Positions 16,826-60,243 of a DNA stretch of 64,000 nucleotides are shown piece by piece. Position 1 is the first letter of the stretch, and the number at the start of each line of letters is the position of its first letter. A model generated the notes under the pieces. The model saw only the letters and a program-made list of their open reading frames with translations. It had not been told where the DNA came from and made no database searches. This DNA is from Candidatus Iainarchaeum sp. (GTDB lineage Archaea > Iainarchaeota > Iainarchaeia > Iainarchaeales > JAZDFD01): contig JAZDFD010000028.1 in assembly GCA_043808155.1 (NCBI GenBank), forward strand, positions 1 through 64,000. The letters run 5' to 3'. Both the position numbers and the translations under genes were made by a program.

Positions 16826-16890
16826 GTGCGAACACAAAGTGTGAGCACGTCCAACCTTGTGTTGGACACAAGCTCGAGGATTGAGCCTCG
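16826..16890 (+). repeat. Hairpin-module element abutting the 5' end of tRNA-Asp
   Basis: Three hairpins; CAAGCTCGAGGATTGAGCCTCG is identical to the copies at 26590 and 60116. Confidence 0.85.
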
Positions 16891-16891
16891 T

Positions 16892-16963
16892 GCCCTTGTA
16901 GTCTAGTGGTTAGGATGCTGCCCTGTCGAGGCGGCGACCCGGGTCCGAATCCCGGCGGGGGCG
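16892..16963 (+). tRNA. tRNA-Asp(GTC)
   Basis: Cloverleaf with GCCCTTG/CGGGGGC acceptor stem, CTGCC-CT GTC GA-GGCGG anticodon arm and CCGGG-TCCGAAT-CCCGG T arm (T loop has C in place of U55). Confidence 0.93.
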
Positions 16964-17082
16964 TATAGTGCTGCCGAAGGTGCACGGATTGCCAACGAAT
17001 CCTTTCGTTGCGGCGGGGGCGTATAGTGCTGCCGAAGGTGCACGGATCTCCACCGGATCTTTCCGGTGTGACGGGGGCGCCA
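16953..17082 (+). repeat. 58 bp period tandem repeat of the tRNA 3' end with variable hairpins
   Basis: Identical 37-mer at 16953-16989 and 17011-17047; third partial copy CGGGGGCGCCA at 17072-17082. Confidence 0.9.
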
Positions 17083-17156
17083 GCATGTTTGGAAGAATGA
17101 CTAAAAGGAAATATTTATTAGTAGAAAAAACATTATTTTAAGAATGAGGTGATTTT

Positions 17157-17681
17157 ATGAAAAGATTTTTGATTGTTTTGATGTTGCTGATGCTTTCAAC
17201 AACTGTGTTGGCTGCACAGCAGGGAAATCATAATGGAAATATGCTAAATGTTGGAATTGAATATAAAAATTTCAACGGATTTATGGATTATTCACATTTA
17301 GGATTGGGCAATTTGCCAATATATTATATTGGACAGAATATGAATTATAGTATTTCAATAGAAAATGGTAAGAACAACAAGTACAATCATTTAGTGATGT
17401 TAGTAACGCACAGAGAATATGAGTCTAAGGCGTTGCAGCCAAATTCTGAAATAGATGAATTTTCAGGGTTGCCTTACCACAATAGAATCTATCTTGAAGA
17501 TTTTAGAACTTCGGAGAAATTTGATTTAAGTTATTGGGTTCCATCTAATGCAACTCCTGGTGCAGGGCAGACAGATGTTATAATTTACAGAGCATATGAT
17601 TGGACTAGCGATAATGAAGGAAATGAATGGAGTTATGGACGGATTATTCTCGAGAGAACATTGGGTTATTTTTGTCCTTAA
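17157..17681 (+). CDS. Hypothetical secreted protein
   Basis: Signal peptide MKRFLIVLMLLMLSTTVLA; GAGGTGA RBS. Confidence 0.7.
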   Translation: MKRFLIVLMLLMLSTTVLAAQQGNHNGNMLNVGIEYKNFNGFMDYSHLGLGNLPIYYIGQNMNYSISIENGKNNKYNHLVMLVTHREYESKALQPNSEIDEFSGLPYHNRIYLEDFRTSEKFDLSYWVPSNATPGAGQTDVIIYRAYDWTSDNEGNEWSYGRIILERTLGYFCP

Positions 17682-17760
17682 AGGGAATTAAGCAGATTTA
17701 ATTCCGCTTTTCGATTATTTTTGAGTCTCATTCTTAAATATTTTTAAGTTTATTTAATAC

Positions 17761-18969
17761 GTGAAAAATATGAAAATCCCAGCAGCAAAAAGAACTGAGA
17801 AACTGACTCATGCAATAAGGGATGTTGTTACTTTAGCACAGGAAGAGGAAAAGAAAGGAAAGAAAATTCTCTATCTGAATATTGGGGATCCTAATGTATA
17901 TGATTATGAAACCCCTAAGCATATTGTAGATGCTATTTTTAAAAATGAAAAAACGCATGAAGGTTATTCACACGCATTAGGAGAATTAAGTGCAAGAGAA
18001 GCAGTTTTCAGAGAATGCGAAAGAAACGGAATTAAAAATCTGGAATTAGATGACATAGTTTTAACTGTCGGCGGGAGTGAAGGGATTAATTTTGTGCTTA
18101 GTGCATTGCTGAATTCAAATGATGATATTTTGATTCCGAGTCCGGGTTATTCATTATACAATGCAGTTTTGAGATTGATTGGTTGTGAGGAAAATTCATA
18201 TTATTTAGATGAAGAAAACAACTGGCAAATTGATGTTGATGAATTAAAGAAAAGAAAAACAGAAAATACAAAAGCAATTGCAATTATAAATCCAAACAAT
18301 CCAACTGGCGGGGTTTATTCAAAAAAAACACTGGAAGAAATAATTGATTTTGCAAATGATAATGATTTAGTAATTGTGAGTGATGAAACTTATGATAAAC
18401 TGATTTTTGATGGAATGAAACACAATTATTTAGGGAGTATGACAACAGATGTGCCTGTGATTACATTGGGCTCACTAAGCAAAAATTATTTGATGCCTGG
18501 TTACAGAGCAGGTTGGATTGCATTTTCTGCACCTGAAAATAGATTGAGCGAAGTAAATGAAGCAGTGAAAAAATTATGCAAATGCAGACTTTCAAATGTT
18601 AATCCAGTCCAGCCAGCGTATAAAGCAGCTTACGAGGGTCCCCAGGAACATCTGAAAGATTTGGTTGAAAAACTGCAGAAGCGAAGAGACATAGCATATA
18701 AGAGATTAAATGAAATTGAAGGACTTTCATGCATTAAACCGCAAGGCGCATTTTATGCTTTTCCAAAAATTGAAGTCCCTGTGAAATCAGATAAAGACTT
18801 TGTTTTGGATTTGTTAAGAACAAAAGGCGTGCTTACTGTTTTTGGTGCAGGTTTTGGGCAGAAAGAAGGAACAAATCATTTCAGAATTGTTTTTTTACCG
18901 AATGAAGAAATTCTTTCAAGTGCATTTGATAAAATTGAAGAATTTATTAAAGAAAAGTATTTGAAGTGA
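17761..18969 (+). CDS. PLP-dependent class I aminotransferase (alanine aminotransferase-like)
   Basis: LNIGDP, INPNNPTG, SDETYD, SLSKNYLMPGYRAGW and PQGAFY motifs. Confidence 0.9.
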   Translation: MKNMKIPAAKRTEKLTHAIRDVVTLAQEEEKKGKKILYLNIGDPNVYDYETPKHIVDAIFKNEKTHEGYSHALGELSAREAVFRECERNGIKNLELDDIVLTVGGSEGINFVLSALLNSNDDILIPSPGYSLYNAVLRLIGCEENSYYLDEENNWQIDVDELKKRKTENTKAIAIINPNNPTGGVYSKKTLEEIIDFANDNDLVIVSDETYDKLIFDGMKHNYLGSMTTDVPVITLGSLSKNYLMPGYRAGWIAFSAPENRLSEVNEAVKKLCKCRLSNVNPVQPAYKAAYEGPQEHLKDLVEKLQKRRDIAYKRLNEIEGLSCIKPQGAFYAFPKIEVPVKSDKDFVLDLLRTKGVLTVFGAGFGQKEGTNHFRIVFLPNEEILSSAFDKIEEFIKEKYLK

Positions 18970-19005
18970 GTTTTGAAAAGATAGGGGCAAAAGCCAAAAT
19001 GGATT

Positions 19006-20583
19006 TCAAAGATGAATTCCTGCATCTGAAATGTCTTTTGGAATGCATTTCATTTCAGTAAATCTTTTTTCAAAAAGTGCAGCTAATTTTTTTGCCTGTG
19101 AAATATATGCATCTTTATCTTTCCAGAGGTTTTCTGGATTGAGATAGTCGTCAGGTACGTTGGGGCAATGGGTTGGCATTTCAAGATTGAATATTTTATG
19201 GGTAGTGTATTCTGCATTATTTAGTTTTCCTGATGTTGCAGCATTAACCATTGCACGCGAGTAATCAATATCAATTCTTGAACCAACACCAGCGGGACCA
19301 TAACCCCAGCCAGTGTTAATCATAAACACAGATGTATTATGAGTGTCTAATTTCTGTTTTAATAATTCAAGATACTTTGAGTGTTTTGCAGGCATAAAAG
19401 GTTCGCCAAAGAAAACTGAAAAAGTGGGAACTGGTTCATTTATTCCTCGTTCAGTTCCTGCAAGTTTGCTTGTGTAACCAGCTGCAAAGAAATAAAGTGC
19501 CTGTTGTTTTGAAAGCTTTGAAATGAAAGGCATTACTCCAAATGCATCCGCAGTTAAAAAAATTATTGTTTTGGGATGACCTGAAACACCAGAAAGTTTC
19601 ATTGAGGGAATGTGTGTTAAAGGATAAGCTGCACGTGAGTTTTCTGTGATGGAAGCATCATCATAATCATAAGAACTGTCTTCACGCATTACTGCATTTT
19701 CAACTAATGTTCCGTGTTTTATTGCATCCCAAATTTGAGGTTCTTTTTCTTTATTTAATTTGATGCACTTTGCATAACACCCTCCTTCAAAATTAAAAAC
19801 TCCAATATCACTCCATCCGTGTTCGTCGTCCCCTACTAATACACGTGAAGGGTCATTTGAAAGTGTTGTTTTTCCTGTTCCTGAAAGACCAAAGAAAAGC
19901 GCAGAGTTTCCTTCTGAATCTTCATTTGCAGAACAATGCATTGGAAGAACATCTTTAAATGTGAGAATATAATTCATAACCGTGAAAATTGATTTTTTTA
20001 TTTCACCAATGTATTTTGTGCTTCCAATAAGAACAATTTTCTTTTCAAAATTCAAAATAATAAATGCTTCTGAATTTGTTCCGTCAAGTTCTGGAACTGC
20101 TTTCAGAGAAGGTGCACTTAAAACAGTATAATCAGGAATGTGGTTTTCTAATTCTTCTTTTGATGGACGTATGAATAAATTATTGCTTGCAAGTGCCTGC
20201 GATGCTAATTCAGAAACAACTCTCAATTTCAAAGAGTAGTTTTTATCTGCACCAACTGAACCATCAAAAATGAAAAGTTCATCTTTTTCATTTAAATGTG
20301 AAATTGTTTTTTTGTAAAGTTTATCAAAAGTTTCTGTGCTTATTGGTTTATTGGCTGAGTTCCATTCAACATATGATTTTACAGACTCTGACTCAACAAT
20401 AAATCTGTCATTCGGAGAACGGCCAGTGTAAGGTGAAGTGTTTACTGATAGAGATTTATTTTTTGCAATCACGCCTTCTTTTCTTTCAACTGCTTTTTCA
20501 ATAAGTTCTTCAACACTGAGATTTCTGTGTATTTTTCCTTTTGGGATTATTCCAATTTTTTCAAGATTAAAAGTTTCAGACAT
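19006..20583 (-). CDS. pckA: Phosphoenolpyruvate carboxykinase (ATP)
   Basis: TGRSP, GEIKKSIF, MHCSAN, FFGLSGTGKTTLS, GDDEHGW and NFEGGCYAK motifs. Confidence 0.97.
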   Translation of the reverse strand: MSETFNLEKIGIIPKGKIHRNLSVEELIEKAVERKEGVIAKNKSLSVNTSPYTGRSPNDRFIVESESVKSYVEWNSANKPISTETFDKLYKKTISHLNEKDELFIFDGSVGADKNYSLKLRVVSELASQALASNNLFIRPSKEELENHIPDYTVLSAPSLKAVPELDGTNSEAFIILNFEKKIVLIGSTKYIGEIKKSIFTVMNYILTFKDVLPMHCSANEDSEGNSALFFGLSGTGKTTLSNDPSRVLVGDDEHGWSDIGVFNFEGGCYAKCIKLNKEKEPQIWDAIKHGTLVENAVMREDSSYDYDDASITENSRAAYPLTHIPSMKLSGVSGHPKTIIFLTADAFGVMPFISKLSKQQALYFFAAGYTSKLAGTERGINEPVPTFSVFFGEPFMPAKHSKYLELLKQKLDTHNTSVFMINTGWGYGPAGVGSRIDIDYSRAMVNAATSGKLNNAEYTTHKIFNLEMPTHCPNVPDDYLNPENLWKDKDAYISQAKKLAALFEKRFTEMKCIPKDISDAGIHL

Positions 20584-20719
20584 TATATTTCACTCTAAAT
20601 ATTGATATAATGAAAATATTAAAAGCTTAAAGGGAAATGCCTTGATAATCTTTAATTGTCTAAATAGTCTCAAATCTTCTTTTGGAAATGTTTAAATATC
20701 AAAAAACCCTACTTCTGAT

Positions 20720-24501: not shown

Positions 24502-25155
24502 ATGATTGCTACAGGAATTCCGGAATTAGATGCGATTATAAATCAAATTTTTCCCTATATAGAAGCAAATCTTTTGACAGTGGTAACACAGACAATTGCG
24601 ATTGTAATTTACGGAGTTGCAATTTTTCATTTTTACAGATTTGTTGCAAGAAAAGATGTATTCGGGTTTGACATGACTGATTATCTGCAGGGTCAGAAAG
24701 CATTTCTTTCAAAAATAACAGATACTTTCGCTGGTGCAATTTCATATGGTTTGGTTTTTCCGTTATTTGTTTTCTTGTGGTTTATGGGATTTGCAATTTT
24801 ATTGTTTTTTCTTACAAGAACAACAGACATACCGCAGATTCTTTTGATTTCAATTGCAATTGTTTCTGCAATTAGAATTACAGCATATTATAGTGAAGAT
24901 CTTTCAAAAGATCTTGCAAAAATGCTGCCGTTTGCATTATTAGCAATTGCGATTGTTGAGCCTTCATTTTTCACAACTGCAACATCATTAGCAAATGTAA
25001 TGAATTTCCAAAATCACATTCCACAAATAATTGGATTTGCAGTAATTGTGATTCTTTTAGAATGGACACTTAGAATTTTTGTATTTGTCAAAAGAGCATT
25101 GTTTGGTGTTGAAATTAAAAAAGAAAAACTTGAAGCTGAAGGACTTGAAGCTTAA
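24502..25155 (+). CDS. Hypothetical membrane protein
   Basis: Several TM segments; RITAYYSEDLSKDLAKMLP block. Confidence 0.7.
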   Translation: MIATGIPELDAIINQIFPYIEANLLTVVTQTIAIVIYGVAIFHFYRFVARKDVFGFDMTDYLQGQKAFLSKITDTFAGAISYGLVFPLFVFLWFMGFAILLFFLTRTTDIPQILLISIAIVSAIRITAYYSEDLSKDLAKMLPFALLAIAIVEPSFFTTATSLANVMNFQNHIPQIIGFAVIVILLEWTLRIFVFVKRALFGVEIKKEKLEAEGLEA

Positions 25156-25272
25156 TTTAGTCTCTAATTATATATAATGTATATAAAAGAAATATAACTG
25201 ATGAATATAACTAATATAACTGATGAATATAACTAATAGAAAATACGCTGAAATTGAGTCCGCTACCTTAAT

Positions 25273-26365: not shown

Positions 26366-26692
26366 ATATACATAAACAAAGTATTTAAAGGTAATTAATG
26401 TGTCATAGCGAACAACGTGAGCGTACCCGATTTCTGCTTTAGCAGAAATGGGCGCATTTCAGCAGAGCTGAAATAGCGTGACACCCGTACTCGCCGGACG
26501 TGACGGCGATATACATAAACAAAGTATTTAAAGCTAATCCAAAAGCGAACAAAGTGAGCAAGTACTACCGAGCCAAAGCGAAGTGTACTCAAGCTCGAGG
26601 ATTGAGCCTCGCGGGCGTTCGGCGCTGGACGTAACGGCGAGCGGAGCGAGATGTGGCACCACAGTGCCACGCGCACCAGCCTGGCGCTCGGC
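26366..26692 (+). repeat. Composite GC-rich hairpin-module element(s) with a 25 bp duplication of the mscS promoter region
   Basis: ATATACATAAACAAAGTATTTAAAG at 26366-26390 and 26509-26533; modules shared with 16869, 49214 and 60116. Confidence 0.85.
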
Positions 26693-26838
26693 TTTATAAA
26701 ACTTTCCCAATTATAATATGTAAAATAAAAGAGACACATGTGTGTCGATTTTTCCAGCTACTATGAAACCCTCGTGAATTGATGCCAAAACAAAGAATTA
26801 CGCGATTTTAGAGATGTTTCCGGAAAAATCATCAATAT

Positions 26839-40227: not shown

Positions 40228-40650
40228 ATGTACGAATATTTTGAACACACAGCAGATATTGGGGTAAGAGGCTTTGGTATTAATTTAGCATCTGCTTTTG
40301 AGGAAATTGCCAAAGGAATGTTCAATATCATGGTGGATATTGAAAGTGTAAATGAACGTCAGGAAGTTGAAATTACTGCAGAAGCAGATACTAAAGAAAA
40401 TTTACTTATTGAATGGCTTAATGCTTTGATTGCAGAAGCAGACCAGAAAGAAATGACTTTTGCCAGTTTTCAGATTCAGGAATTAAGAAATGTTGGAACA
40501 GGATATTATCTGAAGGCTATTGCTATTGGCGAAGCTTTAGATCCAAAAAGACATAATGTTAAAATCGAAGTTAAAGCTGCAACTTATTCTCAGTTAAAAG
40601 TTGAATTCCGCAGAGATAAAGTAATGGTTCAGTGCATTGTTGATGTTTAA
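40228..40650 (+). CDS. Archease
   Basis: YEYFEHTADIG, EVKAATY and C-terminal VDV. Confidence 0.95.
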   Translation: MYEYFEHTADIGVRGFGINLASAFEEIAKGMFNIMVDIESVNERQEVEITAEADTKENLLIEWLNALIAEADQKEMTFASFQIQELRNVGTGYYLKAIAIGEALDPKRHNVKIEVKAATYSQLKVEFRRDKVMVQCIVDV

Positions 40651-41217: not shown

Positions 41218-41274
41218 GTTGGTTAAACTTTTTAATAGCTTCATGCTATTAATATCTGACAATTGGTGAACTAC

Positions 41275-44229
41275 ATGACTGAAATTAATAAGATTGCTGA
41301 TTTTGTGTGGGAAATACCTAAAGAAGGAGACATGCGTGTACCTGTGAAGCTTTATGCAAGTAAAACACAAATAATTGATATGAAAGAAGAGGAAAAAACA
41401 GACTGGAGTTCAATAAAACAACTTAAGAACGTGGCAACATTGCCCGGAATTGAACAAAATGTTATTGCGCTCAGTGATGTCCACGTGGGCTACGGCGCAC
41501 CCATAGGCGGAGTTTCTGCTTTTGATCTGGAGACAGGCGTTATTGTTTTCGGAAATATTGGATTTGATATAAATTGCATTTCGGGGGAGAGTAAAGTATT
41601 GCACGAACACGGATATACAAAAAATATCAAAGATTTTGAAACCGATTGGTTTGACGAGAGTATCAAGTGTTTAAATCCGACAAACAAAGTCAAAAATACA
41701 AATATTGACGCATTCTTAAAATTTAAAACCAAGAAAAAGGTTTACAAACTTGAAACAGAATCTGGAAGAAAAATAATTGCAACAGAGGATCATCCATTTT
41801 ATACTTCAAAGGGAATGAAAGAACTTTCATTATTGAAAAATAATGAGAAAATATCGGTTTTTCCATTTGAGGGTGTCGGATACGAAGAGCCCTCGGATAA
41901 AATAATTATAGCTGAAAAAGATATCAAAAACTTAGGTTTTAAAAAAAATATGAAACAGACAATTGATGAACTGAAAAAAAGAAAACTTTTACCCCTAAAA
42001 ATGAATAATCCAAAAATGCCTTATTTGTTAAAAATATTTGGTTATGCATTGGGTGACGGGAATCTTACAATAAGAAAAAATGAAACCGTACAGTTATCTT
42101 TTTATGGAAATCCTGAAGACCTTGAGACAATAATCACTGATGTCGGAAACATAGGATTTAAAGCTTCCAAAATTTATTCAAGAGAAAGAAAACACGCAAT
42201 ACAAACGTCATATGAGTTAGTTAAATTTGAACACACTGAAACTTGGAGCAAATGCAGCTCTAAAGCACTTAGTGCACTTTTAATGGCAATGGGGTTGCCT
42301 GACGGGAACAAAGTGAAAAAGAATTATAGTATTCCCAAATGGTTATTTAAATGCCCGCTCTGGCAAAAACGATTGTTTTTAGCATCATTATTTGGTGCAG
42401 AACTTAGTACGCCATCCACAATTACAAATCACGGTTATAATTTTAATAATCAGCTCCTTTCAATGAATAAAAATGAGAAATTCGTTAAAAACGGGAGAAA
42501 ATTCCTTAGCCAAATTTCAGATTTATTGGGAGATTTTGGAATAAAAAGTAGTCAAATTAAAGAAAGAGACGAATACACGAACAAAAAAGGTGAACTTTCA
42601 ATAAGATTGCGACTTCAAATTTTCAGCAGACCTGCCAACTTAATCAAACTGTGGAGCATCATAGGATTTGAATATAATAAGAAAAGAAGTTATCTTGCAA
42701 ACGTAGCTACGCAATACCTCAAAATAAAATCCAAAATAATTAAAAGCAGAAAAAAATGCGAACAAGAAGCAAAAGAACTCAGAAAGAAAAAATTAAGTGC
42801 AAAAAAAATATATGAAAAACTTAAATCAAAGTATAACTTCATAAATTTTAGATTTATAGAAAGATCTGTTTATGGCACACGAAAAGGGATGCCGAGAATA
42901 TCATCTGCCTTCTCTTCTTTTGATGAATTTTTAGCACAAAATACTAAAGGGCTTGGTTTTACAGGGCAAGTATGGGATACGATAATATCAAAAGAAAAAA
43001 TTGATTTCAATAAACCAGTTTATGATTTTACTGTTTGTGATGAGAATCACAATTTTATCGCAAATAATTTTGTTGTTTCAAACTGTGGCGTGCGCACACT
43101 TAAAACTGATTTGAAACGAGAAGATGTTGAAAAAGTAAAAGATAAACTTGCTGATGCGCTTTTTCAGAATATACCTGCGGGTTTGGGTGTTAAAGGCGAT
43201 GTGGAATTGACACTGGCAGAAATTGATGATGTTATTGTTAATGGTGCAGAGTTTGCAGTTGCTAAAGGTTACGGAACAAAAGAAGACTTAGAGTTTTGCG
43301 AAGAGAACGGAAAAATTACAGGTGCAGAACCTTCAGCTGTGAGCATGAAAGCTAAGCAAAGACAGTTCAAACAAGTTGGTACTTTAGGGAGCGGAAATCA
43401 TTATTTAGAAGTGCAGTATGTTGATGAAATTTATAATGAAAAAATTGCAAAAGCATTTGGTTTGAGTAAGGACCAAATAATTATTTCAATTCACTGCGGT
43501 TCGCGTGCATTAGGACATCAGATTGGTTCTGATTATTTGCAATTTTTAGATAAAGCTGCAAAAAAGCACGGAATTAAAATAAAAGATAAGGAATTAGTTT
43601 GCGCGCCAATTCAGAGTGAAGAAGGTAAGCAGTATTTTTCTGCAGTTAAAGCAGGGATTAATGTTGCATTTGCAAACAGACACGTAATTGGACATCTTAC
43701 AAGAAAAACTTTTGCAGAAGTATTTGGAATTTCCGAAAGCACAATAAAAACATTTTACGATGTAGGACATAACACTGCGAAAGTTGAAGAGCATGATGTT
43801 GATGGCATGAAAAAGAAATTGCTTGTTCACAGGAAAGGTTCTACCCGTGGTTTTGGTCCGGGAAGAATTGAGGTTCCTGAAGCATACAGAAGTGTTGGTC
43901 AGCCAGTGCTTGTTGGTGGCACAATGGGAACGCATTCATATATTCTTGCAGGAACTGAAAAAGGAATGCATGAAACATTCGGTTCTACTGTGCATGGTGC
44001 AGGCAGAGTAATGTCAAGAATGAAGGCAAAAAAGCAATGGGCTGGTGAAAGTGTTTTGCAAGATTTGAAAGAGAAGGGAATCCTGGTGAAAAGCCATTCA
44101 ACACAGGGTCTTGCAGAGGAAGCACCTGACGCATACAAAGACGTTACTGAAGTTGTTGACATAATGCACAATGCTGGTGTGACTGAGAAAGTTGTGAAAT
44201 TGAAACCGCTAATTGTAATTAAAGGCTAA
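41275..44229 (+). CDS. rtcB: RNA-splicing ligase RtcB containing an intein
   Basis: DVHVGYG, GFDIN|..|CGVR, GTLGSGNHYLE, HCGSR, HGAGR and EEAPDAYK; ATG at 41275 after GGTGA. Confidence 0.96.
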   Translation: MTEINKIADFVWEIPKEGDMRVPVKLYASKTQIIDMKEEEKTDWSSIKQLKNVATLPGIEQNVIALSDVHVGYGAPIGGVSAFDLETGVIVFGNIGFDINCISGESKVLHEHGYTKNIKDFETDWFDESIKCLNPTNKVKNTNIDAFLKFKTKKKVYKLETESGRKIIATEDHPFYTSKGMKELSLLKNNEKISVFPFEGVGYEEPSDKIIIAEKDIKNLGFKKNMKQTIDELKKRKLLPLKMNNPKMPYLLKIFGYALGDGNLTIRKNETVQLSFYGNPEDLETIITDVGNIGFKASKIYSRERKHAIQTSYELVKFEHTETWSKCSSKALSALLMAMGLPDGNKVKKNYSIPKWLFKCPLWQKRLFLASLFGAELSTPSTITNHGYNFNNQLLSMNKNEKFVKNGRKFLSQISDLLGDFGIKSSQIKERDEYTNKKGELSIRLRLQIFSRPANLIKLWSIIGFEYNKKRSYLANVATQYLKIKSKIIKSRKKCEQEAKELRKKKLSAKKIYEKLKSKYNFINFRFIERSVYGTRKGMPRISSAFSSFDEFLAQNTKGLGFTGQVWDTIISKEKIDFNKPVYDFTVCDENHNFIANNFVVSNCGVRTLKTDLKREDVEKVKDKLADALFQNIPAGLGVKGDVELTLAEIDDVIVNGAEFAVAKGYGTKEDLEFCEENGKITGAEPSAVSMKAKQRQFKQVGTLGSGNHYLEVQYVDEIYNEKIAKAFGLSKDQIIISIHCGSRALGHQIGSDYLQFLDKAAKKHGIKIKDKELVCAPIQSEEGKQYFSAVKAGINVAFANRHVIGHLTRKTFAEVFGISESTIKTFYDVGHNTAKVEEHDVDGMKKKLLVHRKGSTRGFGPGRIEVPEAYRSVGQPVLVGGTMGTHSYILAGTEKGMHETFGSTVHGAGRVMSRMKAKKQWAGESVLQDLKEKGILVKSHSTQGLAEEAPDAYKDVTEVVDIMHNAGVTEKVVKLKPLIVIKG
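41575..43083 (+). mobile_element. 503 aa intein with LAGLIDADG homing endonuclease in rtcB
   Basis: Starts CISGES; block B ATEDHPF; GYALGDG and LASLFGAEL blocks; ends VYDFTV..HNFIANNFVVSN before Cys+1. Confidence 0.95.
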
Positions 44230-47893: not shown

Positions 47894-47971
47894 TTGAAAA
47901 ACCATAATTATTACTGTGGCATTGAAAATGCCACACATAAATCGGAGTACCCGTACGAAATCGGGTTGTGA
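47894..47971 (+). CDS. Bridging mini-ORF spanning element copy A
   Basis: TTG start after GGTG; MKNHNYYCGIENATHKSEYPYEIGL*; stops 4 nt before the rpl2 ATG. Confidence 0.45.
   Translation: MKNHNYYCGIENATHKSEYPYEIGL
47906..47966 (+). repeat. Intergenic hairpin element, copy A (rpl23/rpl2)
   Basis: AATTATTACT-GTGGCATT GAA AATGCCAC-ACATAAATCGGAGTACCCGTACGAAATCGGGT. Confidence 0.92.
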
Positions 47972-49133: not shown

Positions 49134-49262
49134 ATGATGATTAAGAAATATGAAAAAGCGGGTTATGACAGTGCCATCGCAGATGGCACGCGGAGCACCC
49201 CGTACGCAACCCTATTTCAACTCAGGGTTGAAATGGGCGCATTTCACAAAAAAGTGAAATAG
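49134..49262 (+). CDS. Bridging mini-ORF spanning element copy B
   Basis: MMIKKYEKAGYDSAIADGTRSTPYATLFQLRVEMGAFHKKVK* after GTGA. Confidence 0.4.
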   Translation: MMIKKYEKAGYDSAIADGTRSTPYATLFQLRVEMGAFHKKVK

Positions 49263-49265
49263 CGT
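49171..49265 (+). repeat. Composite hairpin element, copy B (rps19/rpl22)
   Basis: GTGCCATC GCA GATGGCAC, CGGAGCACCCCGTACG, and a double hairpin shared with 26430-26479. Confidence 0.85.
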
Positions 49266-49275
49266 CGAGTAGTGA

Positions 49276-50719: not shown

Positions 50720-50806
50720 ATGAATACGGGAAAAAATTATTACCGCAGTATCGAACGAAGTGAAGATACTGCACATAAATCGGAGCACCCGTACGAAATC
50801 GGGTAG
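50720..50806 (+). CDS. Bridging mini-ORF spanning element copy C
   Basis: MNTGKNYYRSIERSEDTAHKSEHPYEIG*. Confidence 0.45.
   Translation: MNTGKNYYRSIERSEDTAHKSEHPYEIG
50735..50804 (+). repeat. Intergenic hairpin element, copy C (rps3/rpl29)
   Basis: AATTATTACC-GCAGTATC GAACGAAGTGAA GATACTGC-ACATAAATCGGAGCACCCGTACGAAATCGGGT. Confidence 0.92.
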
Positions 50807-51026: not shown

Positions 51027-51329
51027 ATGGAAGATATTTGTCCTAAATGCGGTCTCCCGCAAAACCTTTGTGTTTGCCAGGAGATTGCGAAGGAAAGCCA
51101 AAAAATAAAAATAAGAACTGACAAAAGAAGATTTGGTAAATTAGTGACAATTGTTTCGGGTTTGGATGAATCAAAAAGTGCAGATCAATTATGCAAGGAA
51201 CTAAAAAGAAAACTTGCGTGTGGTGGCACTGTGAGAAACTCGGAAATTTTATTGCAAGGAAACCATAGTAAAAAAGTGAAAGCCTTTCTGCTAAAGCAGG
51301 GATATAAAGAGGAATTAATTGATGATTAA
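51027..51329 (+). CDS. Translation initiation factor aIF1/SUI1
   Basis: CPKCGLP..LCVC, LACGGT and LQGNH. Confidence 0.95.
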   Translation: MEDICPKCGLPQNLCVCQEIAKESQKIKIRTDKRRFGKLVTIVSGLDESKSADQLCKELKRKLACGGTVRNSEILLQGNHSKKVKAFLLKQGYKEELIDD

Positions 51330-51633
51330 GGGAAAACATTATGAAATAACACAAAAAAATCTGCCTGCACATGAGCTTATCGGGCTTAATGCAAAGGTTG
51401 TGAAAAGTGTTGATTCAAAAAAAACCGGAGTTAAGGGAAAAGTTGTAAATGAAACAAAAAATATTCTGGAATTGGAGAACAACAGCGTTATAAAAAAAAT
51501 CCCGAAAAAAGAAGTTGTGTTTGAATTTGAAATTGGAAATGAAAAAATTATAATTGACGGAAAAATGTTAAATGAAAAACCAGAGAATCGTGTAAAGGAG
51601 TTTTGGAGGAAATACCATGGAAAACTGCAATGA
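51319..51633 (+). CDS. rnp1: RNase P protein component 1 (Rpp29)
   Basis: HELIGL..G..GKVVNETKN..IPK..PENR. Confidence 0.92.
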   Translation: MMIKGKHYEITQKNLPAHELIGLNAKVVKSVDSKKTGVKGKVVNETKNILELENNSVIKKIPKKEVVFEFEIGNEKIIIDGKMLNEKPENRVKEFWRKYHGKLQ

Positions 51634-54248: not shown

Positions 54249-54255
54249 ATGAGGG

Positions 54256-54657: not shown

Positions 54658-54668
54658 TGGTGTTTTGA

Positions 54669-55211: not shown

Positions 55212-55774
55212 TGGGTGAAAACATGGCAACTGCAGAAAAACACAAAACTGATAAAAAAGAAGTGACGAAAGCAAAGAAAACATCAGTTACAACAAAAAAA
55301 GCAGATACTAAAACAAAAACTGCAGAAAAAAAAGAAACAACTGCAAAGAAAAAAACTGCAGAAAAAAAACCAGGTGCTAAAAAAACAATTAAAAAAAGCA
55401 GTGCTGCAAAAAAAGCACAGGCATTAATTAAAAAGAAAGTTAAGAAACCAAGTTTCAGAGGAAGATTTGGTTCGAGAAAATTCAGAAGAAAAAGTAACGC
55501 AAAATGGGACAAATGGAGAAAACCGCGTGGTATTGATATCAAAGACACCCAGGAAAACGGAACTAGTCCAAGAACAGGTTATGGTACTTGCAAACTCATA
55601 AAGACTATGCACCCTTCAGGATATTATGAAAAAATGATATTTAATCCAAGAGATTTGGACGGTATTGATGCAGAAAGATTTGCATTGAGAATTTCAGCAG
55701 GTGTAGGAAAGAAAAAAAGGTCTGAAATTGCAAAAAAAGCAAGGGAAATGGGACTACGTATTTTAAACAGGTGA
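55211..55774 (+). CDS. rpl32e: Ribosomal protein eL32 with Lys/Thr/Ala-rich N-terminal extension
   Basis: WRKPRGID, GYG and HPSG. Confidence 0.94.
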   Translation: MGENMATAEKHKTDKKEVTKAKKTSVTTKKADTKTKTAEKKETTAKKKTAEKKPGAKKTIKKSSAAKKAQALIKKKVKKPSFRGRFGSRKFRRKSNAKWDKWRKPRGIDIKDTQENGTSPRTGYGTCKLIKTMHPSGYYEKMIFNPRDLDGIDAERFALRISAGVGKKKRSEIAKKAREMGLRILNR

Positions 55775-55778
55775 AAAA

Positions 55779-55856
55779 ATGATTTACAAAAAAAATTATT
55801 ACCGTGGGATTGTAAATCCCACACATAAATCGGAGCACCCGTACGAAATCGGGTAG
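55779..55856 (+). CDS. Bridging mini-ORF spanning element copy D
   Basis: MIYKKNYYRGIVNPTHKSEHPYEIG* after AGGTGA. Confidence 0.45.
   Translation: MIYKKNYYRGIVNPTHKSEHPYEIG
55794..55854 (+). repeat. Intergenic hairpin element, copy D (rpl32e/rpl19e)
   Basis: AATTATTACC-GTGGGATT GTA AATCCCAC-ACATAAATCGGAGCACCCGTACGAAATCGGGT. Confidence 0.92.
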
Positions 55857-55865
55857 GTGAAATGA

Positions 55866-56306
55866 ATGAAACTAGACCAAGTAAAGAGATTAGCCGCAGA
55901 TGTTCTTAACGTGGGCGTAACCAGAATATGGATTGACCCTAAAGAAGTTGGGAATGTTGCAGAAGTTATTACAAAAGATGATGTAAGAGCTTTAGTTGCA
56001 GACGGAGTAATCAAGAAAAGAAGAGTGCAGGCACAAAGCCACGGCCATGCACGTTTATTAGCTGAAAAGAAAAGTAAAGGTCTGAAAAAAGGAAAAGGTA
56101 AAAGAAAAGGAAAAGTTAATGCAAGAACACATAGAAAGAAAAAGTGGATTAAAACAGTCCGTGCACAAAGAGATGAACTTAAAAAACTTAAAACAGAAAA
56201 CCCTGAAGCAGTTGCAGAAGCAAATTACCATTCTATTTACAGAAGAATAAAAGGCGGATATTACAAAGGTAGAAAATACGTGAGAAGCGCAGTACTTAAG
56301 AAGTGA
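55866..56306 (+). CDS. rpl19e: Ribosomal protein eL19
   Basis: KRLAADVL.VG..RIWIDP, W...R.QR and Y...KGG. Confidence 0.95.
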   Translation: MKLDQVKRLAADVLNVGVTRIWIDPKEVGNVAEVITKDDVRALVADGVIKKRRVQAQSHGHARLLAEKKSKGLKKGKGKRKGKVNARTHRKKKWIKTVRAQRDELKKLKTENPEAVAEANYHSIYRRIKGGYYKGRKYVRSAVLKK

Positions 56307-56311
56307 TGATT

Positions 56312-56416
56312 ATGAATTTAGAAGAAAATTATTACCGTGGTTTTGAGCAAAACGAAAAACCACACATAACTCGGAGCACCCGTACGAAATCGGGTAGTGC
56401 AATACTTAAGAAGTGA
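56312..56416 (+). CDS. Bridging mini-ORF spanning element copy E
   Basis: MNLEENYYRGFEQNEKPHITRSTRTKSGSAILKK*; ends in a duplicate of the rpl19e C-terminus; an in-frame ATG also overlaps the rpl19e stop at 56306. Confidence 0.45.
   Translation: MNLEENYYRGFEQNEKPHITRSTRTKSGSAILKK
56327..56395 (+). repeat. Intergenic hairpin element, copy E (rpl19e/rpl18)
   Basis: AATTATTACC-GTGGTTTT GAGCAAAACGA AAAACCAC-ACATAACTCGGAGCACCCGTACGAAATCGGGT; flanked by a 22 bp near-duplicate. Confidence 0.92.
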
Positions 56417-56422
56417 TAAATT

Positions 56423-57010
56423 ATGGCAAACAAAGCAACATACGATGTTCAATTCAAAAGAAGAAGCAATGGTAAAACCAATTACAAAAAAAGACTGGCA
56501 TTAGTTAAATCAGGAAAGCCAAGATTAGTTGTAAGGAAAACCAACAGCAGAATAATTGTACAGATTATTGCATATGAGAGACCCGGTGACAAGGTTATTG
56601 TAAGTGCAACATCAGTACAGCTTAAAAAATATGGCTGGGCAGGAAACAAAAATATACCTTCAGCATATTTAACAGGATTACTTTGCGGAATGCGCGCAAA
56701 AGAAGCAAAAATTAATCAAGCAGTTTTAGATATTGGATTTAGAACACCTGTTCACATGTCAGTTCCATTCGCAGCACTAAAAGGTGCACTGGATGCAGGG
56801 CTTGACATTCCATTTGATGAAACCGCACTTCCAAAAGAAGACAGAATCACAGGAAAACATATTGAAAACTATGCAAATTCATTGGATAGCGAAGAAATTA
56901 ACAAAAAGTTTTCAAAAATGATTAAAAATAATGTAAATCCAAAAGAAATTACAAAAATATTCCAAAATACTAAAGAGAAAATTGTGGGAAACAGTAATGT
57001 AAAAGAGTGA
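56423..57010 (+). CDS. rpl18: Ribosomal protein uL18
   Basis: GKTNYKKRL, RLVVRKTN, SAYLTG and LKGALDAG. Confidence 0.96.
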   Translation: MANKATYDVQFKRRSNGKTNYKKRLALVKSGKPRLVVRKTNSRIIVQIIAYERPGDKVIVSATSVQLKKYGWAGNKNIPSAYLTGLLCGMRAKEAKINQAVLDIGFRTPVHMSVPFAALKGALDAGLDIPFDETALPKEDRITGKHIENYANSLDSEEINKKFSKMIKNNVNPKEITKIFQNTKEKIVGNSNVKE

Positions 57011-57014
57011 TGAT

Positions 57015-57707
57015 ATGGCAGTTAGAAGAAGACAAACCGCAGAAGAGAGAGAATCCAAAAGGCTGAAAGATAAAGAGCAGGAACTGATTAAATGGGTGGC
57101 TAAAACAAAATTAGGCAAAATGGTACAGAATGAAGAAATCAAATCATTAGACGAAGTCTTTGCTAAAAATATGAAAATACTTGAACCGGAAATTGTTGAT
57201 ACACTTTTGAGCCTTGAAGAAGAAATGGTTGACTTTAAGAAAACTTCCAGAGTTGTAAGAGCAGGAAGAAAATTTTCATTCCGTGTTACAATGCTTGTTG
57301 GTGATAAAAACAAGTATGTGGGATACGGAACTGCAAAAGATGTTGAAAGATTCCCTGCAATGAGAAAGGCAGTCAGAAAAGCAAAACTTAATCTTGTAGA
57401 AGTTAAGAAAGGCTGCGGAAGCTGGGAATGCACCTGCGGTGCCGAGCATTCAGTACCTTTTGAAGTTGAAGGGAAATGTGCATCAGTACATGTGCGATTA
57501 ATACCTGCACCAAAAGGAGTTGGATTAGTTGCAGGTGACAATATTAAAAAAGTGCTTGAAATGGCAGGTCTGAAAGATGTATGGACAAAAACATCAGGCA
57601 ACACAAGAACAAAATTGAATTTTGTTATTGCTGCAGTTGACGCACTTTCAAAAACAGGGAAAATGAGAATGTCAGATGACATTGCAAAAAAGTTTGAACA
57701 CAAGTGA
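57015..57707 (+). CDS. rps5: Ribosomal protein uS5
   Basis: W..KTKLG, GCGSWEC and PAPKGVGLV. Confidence 0.96.
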   Translation: MAVRRRQTAEERESKRLKDKEQELIKWVAKTKLGKMVQNEEIKSLDEVFAKNMKILEPEIVDTLLSLEEEMVDFKKTSRVVRAGRKFSFRVTMLVGDKNKYVGYGTAKDVERFPAMRKAVRKAKLNLVEVKKGCGSWECTCGAEHSVPFEVEGKCASVHVRLIPAPKGVGLVAGDNIKKVLEMAGLKDVWTKTSGNTRTKLNFVIAAVDALSKTGKMRMSDDIAKKFEHK

Positions 57708-58174
57708 TGATTATGTATGTGGTTATAAGAATAAGAGGAAATGTCAGAGTAAGAGATAAATTAGAGGATACTCTTGGAATGCTAAGACTTAACAGAGTTA
57801 ATCATGCAGTTCTTGTTCCTGAGGGAAAACAATACAAAAACATGGTGCGAAAAGTTGAGCCATTTATAACATACGGTGAAATCAATGTAGAAATGCTTGA
57901 AAAGATGCTTGCAAAACGCGGTAAAACAGAAACAGGAAAGAAATTAACAAGTGAATTTTTGAAGGAAATTAAATTTGCATCAATGAAGGACTTAGCAGAC
58001 GCAGTTATTTCAGGAAAAACTACACTGAAAAAACTCGGAATTAAACCTGTGTTCAGATTACACCCTCCAAAAAAAGGTCACATGAGACAGGGGATAAAGA
58101 AAAATTATAGTTTAGGCGGAGCTGCAGGTTACAGAGCCTCAGATATAAATGTTTTAGTTAAGAAAATGATTTAG
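57704..58174 (+). CDS. rpl30: Ribosomal protein uL30
   Basis: IRIRG, ITYGEI and FRLHPPKKG. Confidence 0.95.
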   Translation: MMIMYVVIRIRGNVRVRDKLEDTLGMLRLNRVNHAVLVPEGKQYKNMVRKVEPFITYGEINVEMLEKMLAKRGKTETGKKLTSEFLKEIKFASMKDLADAVISGKTTLKKLGIKPVFRLHPPKKGHMRQGIKKNYSLGGAAGYRASDINVLVKKMI

Positions 58175-58182
58175 GTGTCTTT

Positions 58183-58692
58183 ATGGTTGTAAGAAAACGT
58201 AGAAAGAAAAATACTCTCAGAGGAAACAGAGTTCACGGAAAAGGTGATACCAAAAACAAGAGAGGTGCAGGTTGCAGAGGCGGCAGAGGACGCGCTGGTT
58301 CACACAAACATAAATTCACAAAATACTGGAAAACATTTGGGAAATTTGGAAAATTGAAAGTTAAGAAAACACTTATTGGAATTAACCTTTCAGATCTTGT
58401 TGAGAAACTTCCAAAACTTGTTTTGACAAAGAAAGTTGAACAGGAAAAAGGAGCATACATTATTGACGGAAAGAAATTGAAATTTGACAAGATTTTGGGC
58501 AGAGGTAAACTCAATGAACAATTAATAGTAAAAAATCTTGAAGTAACTAAAAAGGCTGCAGAGATAATTAAAAAGGCAGGCGGAAAAATAGAGAAATTAA
58601 AAGAAGAAATAACAGACAAAGACGTTGAAGAACAAGATGAAGAATTAGCAGACGATGACTTTGAAGAAACATCAGACATGGACGAGAAGTGA
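58183..58692 (+). CDS. rpl15: Ribosomal protein uL15 with acidic tail
   Basis: RGAGCRGGRGRAG, KILGRG and IKKAGG. Confidence 0.95.
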   Translation: MVVRKRRKKNTLRGNRVHGKGDTKNKRGAGCRGGRGRAGSHKHKFTKYWKTFGKFGKLKVKKTLIGINLSDLVEKLPKLVLTKKVEQEKGAYIIDGKKLKFDKILGRGKLNEQLIVKNLEVTKKAAEIIKKAGGKIEKLKEEITDKDVEEQDEELADDDFEETSDMDEK

Positions 58693-58696
58693 TTTT

Positions 58697-60073
58697 GTGG
58701 GAATACTGGATATTTTTGAACCAATTTACAATGCGTTGCCTGAAATAAAGCAGCCTGTGAAGGAAGTTCCACTTAAGAAAAAACTTATCTGGACAGGTCT
58801 TGTTTTACTTTTGTTTTATATAATGGGAAATATTACACTTATTGGTTTAGCAGGTGTGAGAGGAGATGAACTTACAAATCTCCAGATTATTCTTGCAAGT
58901 AATATCGGAACATTAATTACTGCAGGAATCAGCCCTATTGTTTTGTCATCAATTATTTTGCAGTTACTTGTTGGTGGAAAAATCATTGACATTGATTTGT
59001 CACAGCCAAAAGATAAAGCAAGATTTCAGGGTCTGCAAAAATTATTTGCAGTTGCACTTTGTTTATTTGAAGGTGTGATTTACGTTGCATCAGGTATGCT
59101 TGAACCATCTGAAGGGATGTTTTTAATTGTGGTTGCGCAGGTTGCACTTGGTTCAATAATTTTACTTTACTTAGATGAATTAGTTTCAAAATACGGTATT
59201 GGTTCAGGAGTTGGATTGTTTATTGCAGGTGGAGTTACAGGCAGCTTCTTGTGGTTGGTTTTGAGACCTCCGCTTATTGCAGGAGATCCTGGCGGGGCAA
59301 TTTCACAATTCATTGGAAGTCTTGCAACAGGAGTTAATTTTGTTATTTTAATTCCAATCTTGATTGCAATTGCAATTTTCTTAATAATTGTATTTGCAGA
59401 AGGAATGCATGTGAATATTCCGATAACAATGGGCAGAAAAGGAACTGGCGGAAGATTCCCTGTTAAGCTGCTTTATGTTTCAAATATTCCTGTTATTTTA
59501 GCAGTTGCATTATTTGCAAATTTCCAGTGGTGGTCATTAATGAGTGCAGAACTTGATCTTCCACTGATTGGTAAAGGAATCGGATGGGTAATGGGTGGTT
59601 TAGCTTATTATACAACAGCACCATATGGTTTGTTCGCAGATATAATTGACAGAGTTGGTGCAGAAGGCATGCAGGGATTGTTCTTCATGTCAGGTGATTT
59701 ATTCCATGCACTCATTTACATGGTTATTTTGATTGCATCATGTATTATTTTCGGTAAATTTTGGGTTGAAATGGGCGGTCAGGGTGCAGAAGCAGTTTCA
59801 AAGCAGTTAAGCGGAAGCGGAATGTACATCCCGGGATTCAGAAGAGACAGCAGAATCATAAGGCAGGTTCTTGACAGATATATTCCACCGATTGTGATTA
59901 TTGGTTCAATATTTGTTGCATTATTAGCAGGCTTCGGAGATATGACACTGAATAATTTGTCATCAGGAACAGGAATTTTGCTGACAGTTGGTATTGTTTA
60001 CAGACTTTATGAAGAGCTTGCTAAGGAGCAGCTAATGGAAACAAATCCCTTATTCAAGAGGTTTTTTGGATGA
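58697..60073 (+). CDS. secY: Preprotein translocase SecY/Sec61alpha
   Basis: GISPIV, SKYGIGSG, YVSNIPVIL, IPGFR and GTGILLTV; GTG start at 58697 after GTGA. Confidence 0.96.
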   Translation: MGILDIFEPIYNALPEIKQPVKEVPLKKKLIWTGLVLLLFYIMGNITLIGLAGVRGDELTNLQIILASNIGTLITAGISPIVLSSIILQLLVGGKIIDIDLSQPKDKARFQGLQKLFAVALCLFEGVIYVASGMLEPSEGMFLIVVAQVALGSIILLYLDELVSKYGIGSGVGLFIAGGVTGSFLWLVLRPPLIAGDPGGAISQFIGSLATGVNFVILIPILIAIAIFLIIVFAEGMHVNIPITMGRKGTGGRFPVKLLYVSNIPVILAVALFANFQWWSLMSAELDLPLIGKGIGWVMGGLAYYTTAPYGLFADIIDRVGAEGMQGLFFMSGDLFHALIYMVILIASCIIFGKFWVEMGGQGAEAVSKQLSGSGMYIPGFRRDSRIIRQVLDRYIPPIVIIGSIFVALLAGFGDMTLNNLSSGTGILLTVGIVYRLYEELAKEQLMETNPLFKRFFG

Positions 60074-60243
60074 AATACGTAAGTGATGGGAAAAACAGTG
60101 CTACCGAAAGACACACAAGCTCGAGGATTGAGCCTCGCGGGCGTTCGGCTATGGACAATATTAATAAAACTATGGTAACCCTAAATAATACGCAAATATA
60201 CCGATTTTTAACCAAATTTGGGATTTTTGGGAGTGTGTTTTAA
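60070..60243 (+). CDS. 57 aa bridging ORF spanning element copy F
   Basis: ATG overlaps the secY stop (ATGA); TAA overlaps the next start (TAATG); open throughout. Confidence 0.45.
   Translation: MKYVSDGKNSATERHTSSRIEPRGRSAMDNINKTMVTLNNTQIYRFLTKFGIFGSVF
60096..60156 (+). repeat. Hairpin module, copy F (after secY)
   Basis: CAAGCTCGAGGATTGAGCCTCGCGGGCGTTCGGC (60116-60149) is identical to 26590-26623. Confidence 0.88.

Follow-up and report, generated by a model that had tools for sequence, protein, structure and literature searches.

A mosaic family of hairpin repeats at tRNA, RNA polymerase, and ribosomal-protein loci of a Candidatus Iainarchaeum chromosome

Results

Hairpin modules recur at eight or nine loci of an archaeal contig

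We analyzed 64,000 nucleotides (nt) of a contig from Candidatus Iainarchaeum sp. (the whole stretch is hereafter called the window), in which short hairpin-forming modules recur in different combinations beside a tRNA-Asp gene, upstream of rpoH, and between the genes of a ribosomal-protein operon. A Pfam scan, which covered 74 window open reading frames (ORFs), identified an rpoH-B-A operon, an L30e-NusA-S12-S7-EF2-EF1a-S10 group, and a ribosomal-protein operon extending from L3 to secY. Nearly all window genes are on the + strand, and base skews track gene direction. The nearest named relatives of the host are Candidatus Iainarchaeum, according to an S4e-based locus label, and Diapherotrites, according to the labels of L2 homologues, which agrees with the DPANN host proposed when this DNA was first described from its letters alone (the original prediction). 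The window is archaeal and has a GC content of ~34%, and its element-bearing stretches have 42 to 57% GC.

Eight loci were found within 16826..60156: the tRNA-Asp unit, two units upstream of rpoH (UA and UB), five elements in the ribosomal-protein operon (E1 to E5), and one element at the 3′ junction of secY (U60). Across these eight loci, or nine if a probable further member is counted, at least six modules are reshuffled (Table 1). Both strands were searched, and all module matches are on the + strand. The 22-mer M3 (CAAGCTCGAGGATTGAGCCTCG) is present in three exact copies, at 16869, 26590, and 60116, and no copy at all appeared in any of 100 shuffles. Four copies of M5 (CACCCGTAC) are located at 26482, 50786, 55836, and 56377, where 0.03 are expected; M1 (GCGAAC-N3-9-GTGAGC) is found at 16828, 26408, and 26545 (expected 0.03) and M2 (AGTRCTRCCG) at 16967, 17025, 26561, and 60097 (expected 0.07). 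The double-hairpin core of M4 (GAAATGGGCGCATTTCA) lies at 26445 and 49230. Its two copies have the flanks ATTTC...GAAAT and TGAAATAGCGT in common, and their hairpin tops differ yet pair, with two compensatory pairs between the copies. Within M4, each hairpin is nearly an inverted copy of the other, the sole such case among the modules. Thus, every motif coordinate and sequence given in the original prediction was reproduced, with copy numbers that shuffles did not reach.

Comparing all nine regions with one another upheld the proposal that the modules recur in different combinations: M3 connects the tRNA locus, UB, and the secY junction; M4 and M5 connect UA with the operon elements; and M1 connects the tRNA leader, UA, and UB. 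In addition, the M1 core (GAAC-NNN-GTGA) reappears at the tip of the E3 hairpin, and the E5 and UB hairpins have similar tips, which indicates that modules are nested besides being strung together.

Table 1. Element-bearing loci and their parts. Spacer lengths are given for the window and for the four nearest relative loci, L002 to L005, except at S19/L22 (L002 and L003 only).
Feature	Positions	Strand	Make-up and context	Spacer, window (nt)	Spacer, relatives (nt)
Probable ninth locus	4551..4675	+	GC-rich; upstream of HD-domain gene; outside 16826..60156		
M1 hairpin	16828..16846	+	GCGAAC..GTGAGC, tandem G.A pair; start of tRNA-Asp leader		
Leader hairpin	16849..16867	+	GTCCAAC/GTTGGAC; same slot as the differing 26561-26589 hairpin of UB		
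M3	16869..16890	+	CAAGCTCGAGGATTGAGCCTCG, hairpin CGAGG/CCTCG; ends one base 5′ of mature tRNA		
tRNA-Asp (GTC)	16892..16963	+	Rfam, 57.4 bits		
u1	16964..17021	+	58-nt tandem unit; M2 AGTGCTGCCG with GAA triloop; 7-bp hairpin CAACGAA/TTCGTTG		
u2	17022..17082	+	second tandem unit; ends in CGGGGGCG, then CCA		
AT-rich repeat, copy 1	26366..26390	+	promoter-like, ATATACATAAACAAAGTATTTAAAG; TTTAAA 24 nt before M1 of UA		
UA	26408..26510	+	M1, GTACCCG, M4 (26426-26479), CACCCGTAC (26482-26490), hairpin CGCCGGACGTGACGGCG		
AT-rich repeat, copy 2	26509..26533	+	promoter-like; TTTAAA 18 nt before M1 of UB		
UB	26545..26693	+	M1, M2 hairpin AGTAC../..GTACT with GAGC-CAAA-GCGA tip, M3 (26590-26611), 81-nt region		
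E1, L23/L2	47903..47966	+	5′ block AATTATTACTG, 9-bp hairpin with GAA loop, 3′ block CACATAAATCGGAGTACCCGTACGAAATCGGGT; small ORF 47894-47971	92	-1 to 11
E2, S19/L22, long form	49160..49268	+	GCA-loop hairpin, GGAGCACCCCGTAC, M4 (49211-49264); small ORF 49134-49262	about 156	4
E3, S3/L29	50731..50806	+	tip GAAC-GAA-GTGA (M1 core); 14-nt flanking repeat AGTGATAKTTATGA; small ORF stop TAG 50804-50806	100	-4 to 4
E4, L32e/L19e	55790..55856	+	GTA-loop hairpin; 15-nt flanking repeat AGGTGAAA..ATGA; small ORF 55779-55856	91	8 to 11
E5, L19e/L18	56323..56397	+	30-nt direct repeats 56286-56314 and 56396-56425	116	-10 to 0
U60, secY/EMC3	60097..60156	+	M2 remnant, M3, first 19 nt of the following UB region	169	10 to 99

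The region at 4551..4675 carries a 14-base-pair (bp) hairpin, GTAGCAACC...GGTTGCTAC, which begins with GTAG, ends with CTAC, and has a TAG loop. The hairpin is followed by GGAGCACC, whose four remaining copies (of five in the window) reside in E2 to E5, and then by CTGCCGGACG, which is common to UA and M2; GCCGGACG is otherwise present only in UA. These shared sequences make it probable that the region belongs to the family as well.

Searches of known RNA families and mobile DNAs returned little. With Rfam 15 at the gathering score, only two tRNAs were reported in the window, and at E ≤ 10 nothing overlapped any element. A blastn comparison of UA and UB with phage records yielded no match, and one of the tRNA locus with plasmid records yielded just one stretch similar to tRNA, in a Sinorhizobium record.

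Operon elements combine identical blocks with a covarying hairpin

The four short E copies are each composed of a 5′ block (AAAATTATTACCG), a perfectly paired 8- to 9-bp hairpin that varies in sequence and length, and a 3′ block (CACATAAATCGGAGCACCCGTACGAAATCGGGT). The 3′ block holds a 5-bp hairpin and adjoins the Shine-Dalgarno sequence (AGTGAT or GGTGA) of the next gene, against which it is placed directly in E1 to E4. E2 consists of the same 5′ part plus the whole of M4. A covariance model of E built without E2 (R1) gave five matches in the window, with E values of <1e-19 for four members and 0.0078 for E2.

The E hairpin exhibits covariation, in that three of its seven pairs change on both sides, 47 of 47 alignment cells pair, and only 2 of 500 shuffles reach the observed score; when the 3′ partners were shifted by one to three columns, the covariation score was far lower. 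E3 and E4 have differing hairpins yet share an identical 35-nt block, and gene conversion explains poorly why the identity extends beyond the differing hairpins. The ends of E show just an imperfect inverted match of 6 to 7 nt (TTACCG versus CGGGTAG). An alternative closing stem for E, in which AUUACCG would pair with CGGGUAGU and mask the Shine-Dalgarno sequence, was rejected because the E1 changes in this stem are not compensatory.

The operon copies are absent from relatives and are bridged by small ORFs

For comparison we used 15 relative loci (257,724 bases) drawn from a seven-sequence S4e alignment, the best of which have 47 to 49% S4e identity; the gene identities of two (L002 and L003) were confirmed by Pfam. 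Because the genes of these relatives abut or overlap at the operon junctions (Table 1), parsimony points to the elements being lineage-specific insertions. Longer spacers are present in three distant archaea (L008, L009, and L013), with 42 to 55 nt at L23/L2 and L19e/L18 and 448 to 595 nt at S3/L29, and none of these long spacers holds an E-like sequence. A search of the 15 loci with R1 gave no match with E < 9, and a plain motif search of the same loci gave nothing but two chance matches to CCCGTACG. On this comparison of sequences, the operon-junction elements are insertions that entered this lineage. They look like insertions in other respects as well, since relatives are without them, one copy is truncated, and some copies have flanking direct repeats. 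Closer relatives were seen as proteins, with S4e or L2 66 to 88% identical, and those at 82 to 88% are on contigs of 992 to 3249 bases. We considered whether the L2 proteins of close relatives start inside E1 and set this aside: the top matches, of 243 residues with 92% query cover, fit a start at the L2 ATG and, being unaligned, have no bearing on E1.

The clearest flanking repeats are the 30-nt copies around E5, which duplicate the 3′ end of L19e (its last codons), the Shine-Dalgarno sequence, and the ATG and were not equaled by any of 500 shuffles. Scores as high as those of the 14-nt repeat of E3 and the 15-nt repeat of E4 were reached by 4 and 20 of 500 shuffles, respectively.

A small ORF bridges all six operon insertions (E1 to E5 and U60). 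Its start lies -3 to +11 nt from the upstream stop codon, at a Shine-Dalgarno/start pair that partly duplicates that of the downstream gene, and its stop lies 0 to 21 nt before the next start, with the ORF ending at the next Shine-Dalgarno sequence. At the secY/EMC3 junction, U60 is inside a 57-codon ORF (60070-60243) that overlaps both the secY stop (ATGA) and the next start (TAATG). Shuffled spacers yielded a bridging ORF with a probability of 0.06 to 0.48 per junction, the product of which is 6e-5. Termination-reinitiation coupling in archaea requires overlaps or very short spacers, according to the excerpts cited (PMC10666635, PMC6728339).

We find it most unlikely that the small ORFs themselves are the functional units, which would make E a set of genes for peptides of 25 to 42 residues (NYYR...HKSEHPYEIG). 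E1, E3, and E4 do share this one frame, each with its own Shine-Dalgarno sequence, start, and stop. However, the fully conserved 3′ block falls in a different frame in the ORF of E5, and the ORF of E2 uses a third; the frame of E5 places conservation at the nucleotide level. Synonymous sites are invariant in the E ORFs, and the hairpin region alters residues yet retains base pairs. An exact look-up of eight bridging-ORF versions in a protein collection found none of them, and the 57-residue ORF that contains U60 has no Pfam match. The bridging ORFs therefore lack the conserved frame and protein-level conservation of a small protein.

The structured strand is the sense strand

GNA triloops cap four of the five E hairpins (GAA, GCA, GAA at the inner tip, and GTA) and occur in both units after the tRNA, whereas ~15 remaining hairpin loops are not GNA. 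The triloops noted in the original prediction are thus real, but its statement that loops are often of this type holds for a minority. A GNA triloop with a C-G closing pair is a very stable DNA mini-hairpin, and this closing pair is found in just three cases: GCA in E2, GAA at the E3 tip, and GAA in u1 and u2. Tandem G.A/A.G pairs, which had also been proposed, were seen by inspection in six hairpins, namely the three M1 hairpins, the E3 tip, the tip of the 26561 hairpin, and the 26491-26509 hairpin. Because such pairs are impossible on the - strand, the + strand is the structured one, and this is equally true of the sense transcript. Orientation is sense at nine of nine loci, which, by the test that the original prediction had set, favors a role at the RNA level; transcription and replication are inseparable here, nearly all genes being on the + strand. 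The folding z-scores are alike with RNA and DNA parameters and for the + and - strands, and the proposed single-stranded DNA (ssDNA) signature was accordingly not borne out.

The model of the original prediction, in the form considered here, takes the elements to be strand-specific ssDNA hairpins, either similar to repetitive extragenic palindromic (REP) sequences and bacterial interspersed mosaic elements (BIMEs) or IS200/IS605-derived MITEs (miniature transposable elements with inverted repeats), on which a Y1/HUH enzyme (RAYT or TnpA) with its gene elsewhere would act in trans. Several features fit this proposal. All copies are on one strand, and there are C-GNA-G triloops and tandem G.A pairs, the latter restricted to that strand. 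TTAC, the target of IS608, is located directly before the hairpin in the E 5′ block, CGGGTAG ends three of the five E copies, and the hairpin at 4551-4583 has the form GTAG...CTAC. TnpA proteins of the IS200 type are known in archaea, as stated in the excerpts cited (PMC6006769). According to the same excerpts, however, archaeal Y1 proteins are of the IS200 type only, and the REP-associated and RAYT subclasses are bacterial only (PMC6006769). No family match to a transposase, Y1/HUH, TnpB, reverse transcriptase, or integrase was found among the 74 window ORFs. Furthermore, hairpin sequences vary between copies, whereas such enzymes read specific hairpins; IS200/IS605 elements insert without target duplication, yet E3 to E5 have flanking repeats; DNA energies are no better than RNA energies; and transcription accounts equally well for the uniform orientation. 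The alternating orientation that defines BIMEs was never seen, and membership in that class was dropped. We regard mobilization of this kind as distinctly improbable and action at the RNA level as more likely.

Units near rpoH, secY, and tRNA-Asp

UA and UB lie between a divergent MscS gene and rpoH, and each follows the same 25-nt AT-rich TTTAAA repeat, the first copy of which could also serve the MscS gene. The 81-nt GC-rich hairpin region of UB begins with CGGGCGTTCGGC. In the leader of tRNA-Asp, a TATA-like TTTAAA is situated 40 nt upstream of M1. We rejected M1 as a fixed 5′-terminal hairpin because its distance from TTTAAA differs among the three copies (18, 24, and 40 nt). A spurious 114-residue ORF antisense to UA and UB, used as a probe for homologous DNA, gave no match, its own sequence included.

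A separate observation concerns TACCCGATTTC in UA (26424-26434): its reverse complement, GAAATCGGGTA, occurs without mismatch at the 3′ end of each of E3, E4, and E5. The copies of the latter (50795-50805, 55845-55855, and 56386-56396) adjoin Shine-Dalgarno sites, and pairing between UA and E would be permitted. UA as an antisense regulator of E was nevertheless discarded as a candidate, since the complementarity probably results from homology of hairpin arms and the stretch is paired inside UA itself.

U60 is a truncated, decayed copy of UB 26561-26630, with which it has 34 identical bases. Its folding z-score is ~0 and that of UB is ~-0.8, values that signify no excess structure.

Of the two tandem units that follow tRNA-Asp, u1 carries CGGCGGGGGCG, a repeat of the 3′ acceptor strand of the tRNA, and u2 has the hairpin CACCGGA/TCCGGTG, which includes two compensatory pairs among nine differences from the u1 hairpin. 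The closing stem GCTGCCG/CGGGGGC of u1 and u2 forms six of seven pairs and is followed in u2 by G-CCA. Viewed by themselves, u1 and u2 might be decayed copies of the tRNA 3′ half, left as integration footprints or by tandem duplication and unlinked to the other modules. The 11-nt tRNA 3′ end is indeed repeated with a 58-nt period, the third copy being followed by CCA, and the closing stem resembles an acceptor stem. We nonetheless hold this to be very unlikely, because the units do not resemble the tRNA significantly outside the terminal repeat (shuffles scored as high in 686 and 1138 of 2000 cases), no tRNA model matches u1 or u2 at E ≤ 10, Pfam identified no integrase gene nearby among the window ORFs, and both units bear M2, which is found again at 26561 and 60097. 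The idea that u1, u2, and E descend from tRNA-Asp was likewise rejected, since the similarity is not significant.

Other features of the window

Among the 24 genes with a spacer of at least 50 nt, 12 have a TATA-like hexamer (TTTAAA and similar) that starts 24 to 32 nt before the start codon. This spacing suggests that first genes are mostly leaderless; operon-internal genes have the Shine-Dalgarno sequence AGTGAT or GGTGA instead. At the window edge (1-117), at least six copies of a short motif (AAATGTCCGA, ATGTCGCGA, or ATGTCGGGA) are present, which may be an array of protein-binding sites. An AT-rich direct repeat, ATATAACTGATGAATATAACTAAT, with two copies and a period of ~23 nt, is found at 25156-25272, downstream of the gene at 24502-25155. 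On the - strand, 12110-12985 is a 291-residue ORF made of tandem DNA repeats with a 321-nt spacing (families D2, D4, and D5), and it has numerous weak helix-turn-helix matches.

Several genes relate to RNA processing. The gene for a ribonuclease P (RNase P) protein subunit (p29) is located within the ribosomal-protein operon (51319-51633), and an RNase P RNA is therefore expected in the organism; none was found within the window. An archease gene (40228-40650) lies just upstream of the gene for a 988-residue RtcB tRNA-splicing ligase (41263-44229), which is split by an intein (Pfam Intein_splicing, residues 112-607). The second tRNA reported by Rfam (63741-63856, 116 nt, 48.8 bits) has an insertion of ~45 nt after the anticodon region and was missed by ARAGORN.

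Discussion

The modules described here constitute a real mosaic repeat family, whose behavior is, by analogy, nearest to that of mitochondrial GC clusters and of REP/BIME sequences. Our preferred explanation, which we advance tentatively, is that they are lineage-specific hairpin repeats that spread by copy-and-paste and are read and tolerated, perhaps used, as RNA. Repeat dynamics are argued for by absence in relatives, shuffling of modules, a truncated copy, a tandem duplication, and flanking repeats. Copies would have spread by insertion with target duplication, by recombination, or through some enzyme, and would have swapped modules. An insertion may duplicate the start region of the downstream gene, leaving a left copy from which the small ORF now begins and a right copy that the gene itself uses. 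Ribosomes on the bridging ORF would then traverse the hairpins and restore termination-reinitiation coupling, and hence the elements would persist in operons. At the RNA level, the elements could form stem-loops, in leaders or between cistrons, that govern processing, stability, or the speed of translation; that they are ssDNA substrates of an HUH transposase is improbable. The element-bearing units, comprising tRNA-Asp, the two units before the RNA polymerase operon, and the six ribosomal-protein and secY junctions, are probably highly expressed.

A number of observations weigh against this explanation. The R1 search placed all E copies in a single operon, inside a 9-kb stretch, and gave none across the other 55 kb of the window. 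Blocks on either side of a diverged hairpin are base-perfect. Regulation by the host would account for this clustering and these blocks more readily than would a repeat that is simply tolerated. The flanking repeats of E3 and E4 consist of a Shine-Dalgarno sequence plus ATGA, which functional need alone could explain, and the flanking matches of E1 and E2 are not significant (equaled by 330 and 92 of 500 shuffles, respectively). The polarity of insertion is based on relatives with just 47 to 49% S4e identity, the criterion for a bridging ORF was set after the pattern was seen, and the likeness of z-scores across strands and energy models counts here as well.

These points bring forward a second explanation, which we judge rather unlikely, namely that the elements form a host regulatory RNA regulon. 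The E copies would be cis-acting intercistronic regulators 5′ of the Shine-Dalgarno sequences of L2, L22, L29, L19e, and L18, and UA and UB would be transcribed from promoters of their own as small RNAs or leaders. One factor, such as a ribosomal protein or a member of the L7Ae/L30e family, would bind a module common to all of them (the hairpin with GGAGCACCCGTAC and the G.A-capped tips) and thereby coordinate ribosome and RNA polymerase synthesis. Confinement of all five E matches to the ribosomal-protein operon, placement of the 3′ block of E1 to E4 against the downstream Shine-Dalgarno sequence, covariation of the E stems, and sense orientation at every locus are all as such a regulon would have them, and a base-perfect 35-nt block beside differing hairpins fits purifying selection at each site. 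An L30e-family gene is present in the neighboring operon, and TTTAAA precedes UA and UB by 24 and 18 nt; half of the 24 long-spaced window genes have their hexamer at -24 to -32. The distance from the hexamer to M1 is, however, variable (18, 24, and 40 nt). Because no relative locus that we searched yielded an element, such a regulon would be of recent origin; U60 is a truncated copy without surplus folding energy; and the shuffled modules, flanking repeats, and 58-nt tandem duplication resemble repeat dynamics. By inspection, there is no true K-turn or K-loop, since Watson-Crick pairs are present on both sides of the G.A pairs without the 3-nt bulge, and there is no C/D-box match.

A bolder form of the repeat explanation would have a living, trans-mobilized DPANN system in which each insertion duplicates the Shine-Dalgarno/start region of its target, thereby building its own small ORF, and in which GGAGCACCCGTAC with its hairpin is now a shared site that links ribosomal-protein, RNA polymerase, and tRNA expression. 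We consider this improbable. If it were true, Archaea would have their first counterpart of REP/BIME sequences or mitochondrial GC clusters. Mobility as such would extend REP/BIME-like or GC-cluster-like behavior to Archaea, in which RAYT-type proteins are unreported in the excerpts cited (PMC6006769). If the elements are regulatory instead, they would represent a new archaeal class of cis-acting RNA in the ribosomal-protein operon, with a module in common with small RNAs by the RNA polymerase operon. DPANN genomes are small and streamlined, and their operons rely on overlapping stop and start codons. Repeats that colonize such junctions and are always bridged by a small ORF suggest how a compact genome tolerates or exploits insertions without loss of translational coupling.

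Among known systems, integron attC sites are positioned between array genes and have conserved end blocks, a variable hairpin center, and strand-specific action. E differs in that its ends are not mutually complementary, it is flanked not by cassettes but by core ribosomal-protein genes whose order is ancestral, and no integrase was found in the window. Classical MITEs, with terminal inverted repeats and a fixed-length duplication, are not matched by E, whose flanking repeats measure 0, 0, 14, 15, and 30 nt. The autoregulatory leaders of ribosomal proteins and the K-turn sites of L7Ae and L30e are, as here, structured RNAs 5′ of a Shine-Dalgarno sequence with tandem G.A pairs, whereas E has no Rfam leader match, is present as five paralogous copies in one operon, and is absent from relatives.

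The IS200/IS605-derived MITEs of archaea and cyanobacteria known as palindrome-associated transposable elements (PATEs) have conserved, strand-specific hairpins near both ends and insert 3′ of a fixed tetra- or pentanucleotide without duplicating the target. The family is present in archaea, according to the excerpts cited (PMC6006769), and TTAC precedes the E hairpin. They differ from E in that the hairpin sequence varies among E copies, E3 to E5 have flanking repeats, and neither TnpA nor TnpB was found in the window. Rickettsia palindromic elements persist inside translated sequence by keeping the frame open, as the excerpts of one paper describe (PMC10969869). Those elements are inserted in frame into genes and add a peptide, whereas the elements here are intergenic, with separate small ORFs whose frame varies (E5 and E2).

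A closer resemblance is to REP/BIME sequences of Proteobacteria. As described in the excerpts cited, these extragenic palindromes are assembled into mosaics, often between operon genes, act on mRNA stability, and are proposed to be mobilized in trans by a single-copy Y1 enzyme (PMC2817692, PMC3733652). Mosaic make-up and intra-operon position are common to both. However, BIMEs alternate the orientation of their REPs, whereas the modules here all have one orientation; REP palindromes measure 20 to 40 nt and often exceed 100 per genome, whereas each module here has two to five copies in the window; and a RAYT gene flanked by repeats, as in REP/BIME systems, was not found among the 74 window ORFs. 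Compared with the GTAG/CGTC tag of REPs, CGGGTAG ends three of five E copies, CTAC precedes two of four M2 copies, and M1, M3, and M4 have none. A literature search found no paper that joins DPANN with repetitive extragenic palindromic sequences. We do not claim membership in the REP/BIME, Rickettsia palindromic element, or GC-cluster families.

The closest behavioral match is provided by the mitochondrial GC clusters, double-hairpin elements, and repetitive hairpin-forming elements of yeast, Allomyces, and sponges, so far as the excerpts cited describe them (PMC4478555, PMC2800124). These elements are organellar, are defined by sequence, and have tens to hundreds of copies, whereas two to five copies of each module were seen in these 64 kb of archaeal DNA. 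The target duplication in yeast is a fixed dinucleotide, whereas the flanking repeats here range from 0 to 30 nt, and bridging small ORFs are not described for the mitochondrial elements in those excerpts. In the yeast GC clusters, hairpins are constrained, target duplications are putative, and units merge and shuffle, according to the cited excerpts (PMC4478555). Those traits, namely GC-rich hairpins in an AT-rich genome, a constrained hairpin, and units that merge and shuffle, are found here also, by analogy only. As described in the same excerpts, both are short GC-rich hairpins or double hairpins scattered through a small AT-rich genome, in intergenic positions and sometimes inside ORFs.

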